This document shows positions 24,277-50,600 of a stretch of 64,000 nucleotides of DNA, in pieces. Origin of the DNA: Paecilomyces variotii (Eukaryota); assembly GCA_004022145.1 (NCBI GenBank), contig RCNU01000002.1. One strand, written 5' to 3'. Positions within the stretch are counted from its first letter, which is position 1, and every line of letters begins with the position of its first letter. Both the position numbers and the translations under genes were made by a program. The notes under the pieces are model-generated. The model did no database searches. It was given only the letters and a program-made list of their open reading frames with translations, and had not been told where the DNA came from.

Positions 24277-24884
24277 GGTGAGATCTCGAATCATTCCATT
24301 GGAAGTCTAACCGTTCATCTGCTTATTTCACAATAGCCTACGATATCAGTTATTGGCGGTACATTGCGAATATACTTGATAGACGGGAGCCGTCTGACGA
24401 GATTGGAAAACCATGCGGGTAATAAGGGTCAAGGGGATGGACATAGTTTACTGGGACTGAAAGGCTTTCAATACCCCAAACAGAGCTCGAGTCTGTTTTC
24501 AGGACCTGTTGGGAAGCATCTGTGTTTATTGCCATTCAGTATCTTACCATCCATTAAGATCGGAACCTAGTCTCAATATCATCATTCTAATGACAATTTG
24601 CAATCCGTACACTCACACAACTGACAATATTGCCGCGTGTTTGAACCTTTCCAAGAGGAACTAGAGCTATACTGGACTATTTGATAGTCTATAGATTCTT
24701 TTGGGCCATGGAGACCCCTTTATCGCTTTCTATAGCTAGTAGTATACTCTTCTAAACAAAAACAAGGTCCCCCAAGTGGAGACATTCCTCTTTTTCAACG
24801 CAATATAATTCCACACAGCCCCCTCCAAAAAAACAACTCCATCATCAAACACGATGAAAAAAAAAAGTAATTTCTACTTTCAAT

Positions 24885-24974
24885 TGCGCCGACCGGGATT
24901 CGAACCCGGGCCGCAGTCTAGTCCAGCTAGAAGACAATGGGAGGACTGCATCGTAACCCCTTGACCATCGGCGC
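24885..24974 (-). tRNA. tRNA-Gly(CCC) with an 18-nt intron at canonical position 37/38
   Basis: Minus strand reads GCGCCGA TG GTC AAGGGGTTAC GAT G CAGTC CT-CCC-A [intron 24937-24920] A GACTG CGGC CCGGG TTCGAAT CCCGG TCGGCGC A. A downstream T-run (A-run on + at about 24857-24866) fits a Pol III terminator. Confidence 0.93.
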
Positions 24975-25550
24975 TATTTTGTTCCATTATTTCTTTTATT
25001 CCAATTCACAATCCTTATCATTCCTCTCCATTTGAGGACGGCAAGAGAAAAGGCCGAATTCAAAGGGAGAAGTCCTGTCCCACATCGGAGTCCGGGTAAG
25101 AGCCCACATTAAATACTTTTCCATCAAAGTACTTTTTTTTCTTCCTTCGTAGCAGTGGCGAAAATTTTCTTTTAGCTAGGTATGATCCACTTGAGAAACT
25201 GTGTGTTCAATAATCTTTGAACCGTGGATGGAGGAACCCCACTTGATTCTGGATAATTTCATTTGCATACAAGAGATCTGGGCTTTTCATGATAATCTTC
25301 AACGCCTCTACTCTAAGGAGAAATATTACAAGATCATCTTGACTCTATGAGGTATTTGGTAGACCATAGTTCTCTTACAGCTGACCACATAAATTATTAT
25401 CCGTTGACATTAATTATAAAGATAAAGAGACTGCTTTTATAGCTAGCCAGGCTGCTTGAGATGCTCTAAGTGAGTTATGTCTCCATAAAGAGGAGCTCAC
25501 AGTTTATGGAAACCCGTCCCTGGGCCCATTGCGCCGGAGATATCAACTAG

Positions 25551-26809
<1,259 letters not shown>

Positions 26810-47657: not shown

Positions 47658-50600
47658 ATGCCTGCTGATTATTATACAAGACATTCGGATGCCACGACGG
47701 CGAGTCGAGATTCCTTTGGCGATTCTACAATTTCGGACTTTGATCCAGAGCACGAAGCTCTCGCGTCAACTAGACAGATCGATAGCAGCCACGAGCTTCC
47801 AGAGATAAGAGGAAGCGCAAGGAAAAACCGCGACAGCGACGCGCAGGACGACGCTGATTTCGCGATCGACACGTCTGCATTGCACCGGGCTTTTCCCGAC
47901 TTTTCCCAGGTTCACTCTTCCGAAGAGGACGACGACATGTCCATTGAAGTCGGACGAGGAGCAAAGACGACGGCTCGACAGCTGGACGACTCGAGGACGT
48001 CAGTCATGAGCTTCGAGAACAGTGTCCGCTCTTCCTCCCCAGCGGTGAAGCTGGACTATCCCTCTCCACAGGCGCAATCAAAGCTGAGAACGCGCACTAC
48101 CAGCAGACGCGTCACTAGCGGTGCTGACAACCTCCGCAAGGATGCTCAGCTCAGACGGGCAAGCCAAGCGCAGAAAGAAAATGTTGAGCCTCAGGTTGTC
48201 CCCAGACCCAGGAATCCTACACCCGCTACTGCTCAGGGTAACGACCAGCGCCGGACCTTGTCAGACATTCACGCCAAGGTTCGTGACACATATGATGGCT
48301 CATTTATCGCCGACGAACGGCCTTCGAATGTCCCTGTGAACAAGCGGACGACGAGATTCGGAAGTGCACGGGTCAATGATATTCAGGCAAGAGTTGCCGA
48401 AGCCGTTGACAAAGCATCCTACGACGTCTATGGAAGGGACAGCCGCGGTGCCAGGATGGACTCCAACACGAGAAACTCCGCGAATTTCACGCAGACATCC
48501 AACACCTTTGCAGACACTGGCACTCACCAATCTTTCCTCCTTCCTGACCTTCCAAATCTCTCAGAGCTCGTGTCGGGTGTGTATGATAATGGGACACCGG
48601 TGTTCCCGGGAAAGAATAAATCGCGAACAACGCGTTTTGTCTCCCCACCACACGACGGTGGTGAGCCATCGTACGTTCACAACCACAGACCAGTGGACGC
48701 TGTTCCTATTCCAGAGGACGAAAAAGCATTATTTGTCTCATTGAGGCTGCTGCAGGATAAGGTGGCGGAGCTGGAGCTTTCCAGGTCAGAGACAGAGAAG
48801 AGACTCGAAGACATGCGCGAAGAAAACGCGATATTGAAAGCAGACAAGGCCCGACGCCAAAAAGACCAGTACAACCGCCTAAGATATTATGGCAGCGACG
48901 AAGACGAATACGGGCACGCCAACCGAAAACTCAGCACCGAAAAGAATCGTATGTGTGATTTGTCTCTGTTTTGAATCCATTTTACTGACTAGACTCAGGA
49001 CTCGAATCTGCCAACTACGCATTGCAGAATAGCCTCGAGATTGCCAACAGAAAAGTCGATGTACATGAAAGCGCTCTTAAGACTCTCAAGCGTGAACACG
49101 ACATGGCAGTCTCCCAGCTGGGAGTTGCGTATCTTAACTCACAGGATTTGAAGGCAGAGAATGAGTCCTTGAGACAGGAAAACGCGGAACTCAAGGCTCA
49201 GGTGACGAAATTGCTTGCTCTCACGCGAAAGGGCAAGGCCCGTGATGAGGGTACTACCCGCTCGGAGCGTGGAATGGACGACGAAGAAGCTGCCGACGAC
49301 GAGGGGATGTATACTCAGCAAAGCGCTGACACGACTAGACAATCTTTGGAAGAGCCGACGAAGCCTGTAGCTCGTAGATCGAGCTCCGCAAACCGACAGG
49401 GCTCTCAGGCAAAGGTGTCGAAGCAGATTGACGAGGAAATTTCCAGACTGGAGAAGGAGCAACAAGATGATGCTCTTTTCTCTCTTGATGCCCCTAGATC
49501 AAGCCATGCGGCATCCACGTCCAAGCCCTCGAAGGCAGCTAGCCGCTCACGGGAGGCCTCCCAGACAAAGAAGCCGAATACGAGCAAGCAAAGAGTCAAG
49601 AGGGTCGTGGTTGAAGACGTGGACATTGACGAGCCAACCTCGGTTAACACGGAAGATACTCGGGACCAGACTGGCGCTGATGAAGACCTGACATTGTTGA
49701 GCTTCATTGATGGCAATGAAATAGCCCAGTTGCGCAAGACACTTGAAGAAGAGAGAGCGGCGCGCAAGCAGCGACTATCTGCTGCCGTGAGAGATCACAC
49801 GGCGGATGAGAGTCGTAACGCTACTCGTCCGGCAGCTATTCCCTCGCGGCCACGTAAGTCGTCGCTGAAGGAGACGAAGCCATCTTTTACCAGACGTGCC
49901 TCTACTGGTGACGCGACGGGGAAGACGATCGATGACGGCAATAAGGAGCTGCGCGTACCGACTGTCTCTGAACGTCACCGCCGCCATTCTGATAACTCCG
50001 TGTCGACTGTGCGACGGCGGCGTCCCACCAACAATGGGGAAATGACTTCCGCCTTCATTATCCCTGATATCACTCTGCATCATTCAGACCCAGAACTCGC
50101 GAGGACTGAGAAACTGTCCGAATCGGCAAAGCGTGTGCTGGATACAGTTGCGAAGCACGACGGGACGAACTGCACTATCTGCAAACGATTTATCCCTAGC
50201 GGTGTCGAGCATTCTCACGGTGATTCGTATCGTCGAGAAAGCGTCACCATACCCAGGCCTGTGCCTGTCAGCGACCGTATTCCGATGTCCAATTCCTACA
50301 ACGAAGAGCACACGTTACGACCGTCACAGCCGCCAGCCATTGCCCTAGCCACTGTTTTGAAGACTCTTGAGGACGAACTCTCGCACCTTAAGATGCTTCT
50401 TGCCAGATACCAAGCTGCATACAACAGAATGGACGCGTCTCTCAGCAAGCGGCAAAGGAAGAAATTGTATGAGAGGATTGAGAATACATTGAAAGATATA
50501 GATTCGAAGTCGGATCAAATCTATGCTCTCTATGATGTTCTCGAAGGCCAGAAGCAGAACGGCCAGCTCATGACGGAGCAGGAACTGGAGGTTACGCTCC

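Follow-up and report, generated by a model that had tools for sequence, protein, structure and literature searches.

The closest described systems are Tpi1, Pgk1, Rpe1 and Art1 of Ustilago maydis, which are alike in having a UGA-CUA(G) stop context, a short extension ending in a PTS1 and a place in central sugar-phosphate metabolism (PMC3798809, PMC4207609). In U. maydis, CUA after UGA is sufficient for readthrough, and the stop codons UAG and UAA are weaker; the first two nucleotides after UGA weigh most, and a G at +4 is common (Stiebler 2014, PMC4207609). [quoted passage not shown] 2C legend of the same paper) resembles what is proposed below. Readthrough of the U. maydis PGK and TPI genes is stated by Ast 2013 (PMC3798809), citing Freitag 2012, and the same source attributes peroxisomal PGK of Aspergillus nidulans and peroxisomal GAPDH of U. 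maydis to alternative splicing. The UGA CUA G context is also found in the mammalian LDHB and MDH1 genes, which have a minor peroxisomal isoform (PMC4359377, PMC5133446, PMC4207609); they differ from the present case in being animal genes with measured readthrough rates that encode unrelated enzymes.

Glucose-6-phosphate 1-epimerase itself is known from peroxisome-type organelles. In kinetoplastid glycosomes and in Naegleria the enzyme has a PTS1, for which the anomer specificity of the enzymes using glucose 6-phosphate (G6P) has been given as the rationale (PMC9512073). That PTS1 is native and constitutive, and the organelles hold both glycolysis and the pentose-phosphate pathway, whereas the tag of the Paecilomyces enzyme would depend on readthrough. 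In fungi, peroxisomal isoforms of 6-phosphogluconate dehydrogenase have been described (PMC7214817), and a study of the Clonostachys epimerase is silent on its location (PMC10381721). The literature searched contains no report of a peroxisomal location or a PTS1 of the fungal enzyme, and Kiel et al. 2009 may list the Penicillium orthologue. The initial annotation had regarded the enzyme as unreported in such a context; this stands for the fungal literature searched but does not extend to kinetoplastids and Naegleria, where the native PTS1 form is known (PMC9512073). Mechanism and motif are established; what is new, within the literature searched, is the enzyme and the lineage.

Here we describe a candidate readthrough PTS1 in the glucose-6-phosphate 1-epimerase gene of Paecilomyces variotii, found in a 64-kb stretch of genomic DNA that we refer to as the window. 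Compared with the U. maydis cases, the enzyme is a different one, the organism is an ascomycete of the Eurotiales, the tripeptide is the rare HKL, and the case is described from sequence data.

Gene structure and enzyme identity

The epimerase gene lies on the minus strand and consists of three exons, all in phase 0, which encode a product of 319 aa. Its parts are as follows.

26438..26683, minus strand: exon 1, ATG at 26683-26681; 82 codons; Pfam Aldose_epim E 3.6e-06
26337..26437, minus strand: intron 1, GT..AG, 101 nt; skipped in the X12 and X17 RNA contigs
26007..26336, minus strand: exon 2, 110 codons; Pfam Aldose_epim E 9.4e-14
25935..26006, minus strand: intron 2, GT..AG, 72 nt; skipped in the X12 and X17 RNA contigs
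25554..25934, minus strand: coding part of exon 3, 127 codons, ending ...GGQTIRSQ; Pfam Aldose_epim E 1e-09

Each of the three exons matches the Pfam family Aldose_epim (PF01263), and profile positions 8-298/299 are covered. An annotated P. variotii protein named glucose-6-phosphate 1-epimerase (P0002) is 100% identical to exon 3. The closest solved relative of this protein is the yeast hexose-6-phosphate mutarotase YMR099C (PDB 2CIQ; E 3.4e-64, residues 36-315) rather than a galactose mutarotase, and the second-best one is 2HTA, a putative aldose-1-epimerase-related enzyme (E 6.9e-29). The YMR099C family is marked by catalytic His/Glu and phosphate-binding Arg residues, and the alignment with 2CIQ shows identity or near-identity in the blocks PQHG[FL]ARN, LxH[ST]Y and IC[VI]E. 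The yeast protein belongs to the same fold family; its alignment ends at residue 285 of 297, short of the end of the chain. The gene is a single-copy-looking glucose-6-phosphate 1-epimerase (hexose-6-phosphate mutarotase) of the YMR099C family. The enzyme had been named as such in the initial annotation, and this identity is now backed by the PF01263 matches, the identity to P0002 and the match to 2CIQ.

Stop codon, extension and terminal tripeptide

The features around the stop codon are listed below.

25551..25553, minus strand: annotated stop TGA, candidate leaky stop; the same in the X12 and X17 (RNA) and the X10 and X14 (DNA) contigs
25547..25550, minus strand: CTAG directly 3' of the stop, giving the context UGA CUA G, a motif described in PMC4207609
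25500..25550, minus strand: in-frame extension of 17 codons, LVDISGAMGPGTGFHKL, from the ORF translation
25500..25508, minus strand: HKL (CAT AAA CTG), candidate PTS1 tripeptide, read from the sequence
25497..25499, minus strand: second stop TGA, followed by GCT, which closes the extension; read from the sequence
25400..25496, minus strand: minimum 3' UTR past the extension; the X17 RNA contig reaches 25400 and the X12 contig passes 25100

The minus-strand bases run from CAG ACC ATT across the stop (CAG TGA CTA GTT) to CAT AAA CTG TGA, and the translation reads ...QTIRSQ-stop-LVDISGAMGPGTGFHKL-stop. The anatomy first described for this site, with TGA at 25553-25551, CTAG behind it and an in-frame tail to HKL-stop, is exact in the sequence, and the TGA-CTA(G) context at 25553-25547, which had been taken for a readthrough signal, fits the published motif (PMC4207609). 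The final 12 residues of the extension, GAMGPGTGFHKL, are rich in Gly and Pro and include zero acidic residues. The GC content of the extension (0.549) is close to that of the exons (0.52-0.56), compared with 0.49 over the following 51 nt and 0.25-0.37 between 25445 and 25242. No stimulatory RNA structure was found 3' of the stop beyond the level of shuffled sequences (z +0.99), and therefore any readthrough would depend on the short motif alone. A search of 24700-25600 against Rfam returned zero families at the gathering threshold.

The tripeptide HKL had been described as a non-consensus, PTS1-like terminus. In Histoplasma, which belongs to the same class, adding -HKL is enough to bring an mNeonGreen reporter into peroxisomes (Brechting and Rappleye 2026, PMC13343957), and supplementary file 5 of that paper includes two HKL-ending proteins. 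Given this import, HKL as a candidate cryptic PTS1 is more than PTS1-like. In plants, a decapeptide ending in HKL failed to target a reporter in onion cells (PMC3487989).

Downstream of the epimerase stop, at a distance of about 520 nt, ARAGORN reports a 90-nt tRNA-like gene at 24885-24974 (minus strand), whose anticodon is an odd one of 4 bases. The acceptor and T arm are clear and a T run comes after them, so that the gene is probably an intron-bearing tRNA.

Transcripts and strain variation

Logan contigs of four coded runs were aligned to 25100-26800, namely X17 (RNA-Seq), X12 (probable RNA), X10 and X14. The X12 and X17 RNA contigs have joints at 25933>26006 and 26334>26436 (cut +2), which confirm both introns. 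Neither a further joint nor a base change at the TGA was found in these RNA contigs; as the RNA evidence consists of contigs, rare isoforms can drop out of it. Both contigs run at least 97 nt beyond the stop of the extension, and because X17 extends to 25400 and X12 beyond 25100, the extension belongs to the mRNA.

The X10 and X14 contigs are ~1% diverged from the window. In both, the CTA after the stop is duplicated, so that TGA CTA GTT becomes TGA CTA CTA GTT, which adds 3 nt in frame and one extra Leu, and the base after the first CTA is C instead of G. They also have a Gly to Ser change at codon 6 of the extension, a synonymous change of an Ile codon just upstream and one change past the second stop. 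The other two indels of these runs lie in the 3' flank (1 nt inserted) and in intron 2 (4 nt deleted), and neither length is a multiple of 3. TGA-CTA, HKL and the frame between them are kept in all four runs. This retention agrees with coding constraint, on the basis of one indel and a divergence of only ~1%. The extension has one nonsynonymous and zero synonymous changes in X10 and X14, which gives no power for a dN/dS estimate, and its conservation is seen in two strains that are only ~1% diverged.

Within 25179-25306 there are six positions at which X10, but not X14, departs from the window, and further up the changes are common to X10 and X14. This mosaic pattern hints at recombination between strains. 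Short contigs of X10 and X17 match just 26526-26686 at lower identity, and from this lower identity their source is taken to be another organism or a paralogue.

C-termini of the orthologues

The initial annotation had pointed to a PTS1 placed directly at the normal C-terminus in other species as a sign to look for. The C-termini of the best 120 of 386 matches were all read, and the window's own protein was excluded, which left 119 orthologues; a native PTS1 was scored as [SAPCNH][KRH][LIM] at the C-terminus. By this definition, 92 of the 119 (best 120 of 386 matches) have a native PTS1, placed 2-3 residues past the conserved GGQTI[RK], and it is gone from Paecilomyces. The tags of these 92, again among the best 120 of 386, are SRL (28), PRL (27), ARL (7), SKL (6), CKL (4), SRI (4) and CRL (3), and the remainder are PKL, AKL, CRI and NRL (2 each) and several singletons. 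The position -3 is variable, and the basic residue at -2 and the L/I at -1 are kept, which is the signature of a selected PTS1. The named bearers among the 92 are mostly Eurotiales and Onygenales, in the genera Aspergillus, Penicillium, Talaromyces, Thermoascus, Coccidioides, Paracoccidioides, Blastomyces, Histoplasma and Trichophyton. Of the 119 (best 120 of 386), 27 lack the motif. Five of these are non-Eurotiomycetes, namely lichen-forming fungi, one Sordariomycete and one Dothideomycete, and several Eurotiomycete groups are among them as well: Aspergillus sections Nidulantes and Usti, Elaphomyces-like sequences, Thermomyces dupontii and Thermoascus thermophilus. Bacterial-type homologues among the metagenome matches listed, about 25 loci by our count, have unrelated ends (AIV, EAG and others). 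The predicted native, canonical PTS1 in most Eurotiales and Onygenales orthologues is a wider and more robust result than the readthrough case.

The Histoplasma orthologues (P0098, P0147 and P0148) differ from one another at the tag alone, which is SKR (no PTS1) in G186AR, SKL in H88 and H143, and SRL in H. ohiense (KAG5298366). Several Aspergillus epimerases are annotated with 560-593 aa and an added class II aldolase/adducin domain (PF00596 and PF01263; P0058, P0066, P0076, P0077, P0096, P0102, P0103, P0105, P0106 and P0110). Their C-terminal ends vary (KSK, SRI, NRL, NKL, NRI and PRLS), and the models may represent either a true fusion or merged neighbouring genes.

Among the 80 metagenome loci listed, no other TGA-CTA case was found in those that have a complete end of a fungal-type orthologue. 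Two loci that lack a native PTS1 have other in-frame tails. In L004 (match end near 1134), ...MISY is followed by TGA CTG AGG and a 9-aa extension ending in EKL, and in L048 (near 3117), ...TISY is followed by TAG CTA CAG and a 14-aa extension ending in NKL; either may be another weak candidate for readthrough or a chance occurrence. Among the matches listed, fungal-type metagenome loci also end in SHL or AHL (eight loci: L003, L005, L006, L016, L017, L021, L023 and L026), in SLL or ALL (nine loci: L007-L009, L019, L029, L032, L038, L039 and L069) and in SYL (four loci: L037 and L041-L043). These ends suggest weak or non-canonical PTS1-like termini outside the Eurotiomycetes. SYM has been described as a non-canonical fungal PTS1 (PMC12316961).

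Loss of the native PTS1 in Paecilomyces

All eight annotated Paecilomyces proteins (the P0002 cluster) lack a native PTS1. They end in RSQ in five P. variotii strains, in RSASQ in one, and in RASSQ in P. lecythidis and in strain No. 5; the cluster members that come from Logan (P0129-P0132) are fragments of exon 2 and do not reach the C-terminus. The close relative Thermoascus crustaceus has kept ARL. For a quick maximum-likelihood tree (IQ-TREE), 47 rows were chosen; fused models of >400 aa were excluded, C-terminal tails were trimmed, and most of the rows without the motif were taken in, a deliberate over-sampling of PTS1-less sequences. The tree joins its four Paecilomyces rows in a single clade (SH-aLRT 100), and the label 'native PTS1' changes at least seven times, a count to be read with the over-sampling of PTS1-less rows in mind. 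Because all eight Paecilomyces proteins share the Q-stop end, including those of another species, the change is old. On these sequences, PTS1 loss is old within Paecilomyces and recurrent in the epimerase family.

Readthrough and its alternatives

The reading that we consider probable is that the P. variotii gene encodes a cryptic PTS1 isoform of glucose-6-phosphate 1-epimerase made by stop-codon readthrough. Most ribosomes would stop at the UGA and release the cytosolic 319-aa enzyme. A minority would misread the UGA, which stands in the weak-termination context UGA CUA G, by means of a near-cognate tRNA (Trp, Arg or Cys). Such misreading would add 18 residues, X-LVDISGAMGPGTGFHKL, and the stop-spanning stretch of the extended product would be SQ-[W/R/C]-LVDISGAMGPGTGFHK. 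The flexible, Gly/Pro-rich tail would then show HKL to Pex5, and that fraction of the enzyme would be imported into peroxisomes, so that a single gene with a single mRNA would supply the enzyme to two compartments. Readthrough in P. variotii, import of the product and its metabolic role in the peroxisome are what we infer from the evidence above. As for that role, the imported enzyme might supply beta-G6P to a peroxisomal G6P dehydrogenase, an idea whose sole backing is the kinetoplastid analogy.

How often such a pattern would arise by chance was estimated from the window. TGACTAG occurs there in 2 copies on both strands, compared with 7.3 expected from shuffles. The 2364 TGA triplets in the window are followed by CT in 122 cases, by CTA in 19 (0.8%) and by CTAG in 2. 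Ends of the type [SAPCNH][KRH][LIM] make up 1.0% both of random stop-to-stop ORFs (39 of 3976) and of dinucleotide shuffles made from the 3' flank of the gene (202 of 19984). The joint chance per TGA-ending gene is ~0.008 x 0.010 = 8e-5, and by our arithmetic from these window rates ~0.3 genes are expected by chance in a genome of 10,000 genes, which means that a scan of genes will meet such cases. The pattern of stop context and PTS1 end alone is not significant; it gains significance only jointly with the evidence from the orthologues.

The other TGACTAG copy, at 48986-48992 (plus strand), is not obviously at a gene end; its context, ...ttttactgactagactcagg..., looks more like the branch site and acceptor of an intron.

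The most serious alternative is that the Paecilomyces enzyme is cytosolic only, and that TGA-CTA-G and the in-frame HKL are coincidental features of the 3' UTR. The native PTS1 has been lost frequently in the family, with at least seven label changes in the 47-row tree and 27 of 119 orthologues (best 120 of 386) without the motif, so that an uncompensated loss is a realistic explanation. The ~0.3 chance matches per 10,000 genes expected when many genes are scanned, the amino-acid change and the indel in the extension between close strains, and the lack of RNA structure 3' of the stop (z +0.99) fit this explanation as well. The same holds for the Histoplasma data. The G217B orthologue KAG5298366 ends in SRL, and it was not found by accession or name in five supplementary files of the Histoplasma peroxisome proteome, of which the copies are possibly incomplete (PMC13343957); its absence from these files leaves even the native-PTS1 form without experimental support there. 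Against mere coincidence, the joint chance is only ~8e-5 for any one TGA-ending gene, and the pattern falls in a family with PTS1-bearing relatives, which is a further factor, given that ~200 proteins of P. chrysogenum have a predicted PTS (Kiel 2009, as cited in PMC7348727). In addition, the one indel of the extension preserves the frame, all four runs retain HKL and TGA-CTA, and the GC content of the extension is exon-like. On balance, we judge a purely cytosolic enzyme to be unlikely, though a contender to be taken seriously.

A second alternative treats HKL-stop as the ancestral native PTS1, which an old event (an insertion or rearrangement of ~50 nt, stop included) would have displaced and which would now be decaying and unused. 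The stop region is indeed prone to indels, as judged from the RSQ, RSASQ and RASSQ ends in Paecilomyces and the duplicated CTA in X10 and X14, and the tail has no counterpart in the orthologues, which end 2-3 residues past GGQTI[RK]. Such a relic would leave the rare TGA-CTA-G context of the intervening stop (2 of 2364 TGAs) unexplained, and the frame and the tripeptide are intact in every strain seen, though the Q-stop end is old. This origin appears very improbable.

The splice consensus has a conserved G at intron position 5, which the sole GT near the stop (GTGACT) lacks, and the possible acceptors would give either a 35-nt intron without a PTS1 product or a GAG acceptor. Alternative splicing, by which a rare mRNA would join the frame to a PTS1-coding 3' exon as in A. 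nidulans PGK, has precedents in that gene and in U. maydis GAPDH (PMC3798809), and a missing splice joint is weak evidence because contigs drop rare isoforms; it was nevertheless rejected as the main route, with a likelihood that we regard as close to nil, since the X12 and X17 RNA contigs show two constitutive introns and no stop-removing or other joint.

Biological implications

Readthrough thus remains the preferred explanation of the P. variotii locus, and it would have consequences for annotation and for metabolism. A standard gene model would hide the isoform. If the reading is true, the epimerase would be the first G6P-acting enzyme among the fungal enzymes with hidden peroxisomal isoforms, and a native PTS1 would have been replaced by a readthrough PTS1 within one fungal class. 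The PTS1s of the orthologues in Aspergillus, Penicillium, Coccidioides, Blastomyces and Histoplasma point to peroxisomal sugar-phosphate metabolism. A broader proposal, which we put forward tentatively and hold to be rather doubtful as a whole, is that Eurotiomycete peroxisomes routinely hold the epimerase, which would imply a G6P pool for an oxidative pentose-phosphate/NADPH module, and that Paecilomyces switched from constitutive import by a native PTS1 to dosed import by way of a leaky UGA-CUA. If this switch did take place, the gene would be a natural example of a cytosol-to-peroxisome ratio tuned by the exchange of targeting mechanisms.
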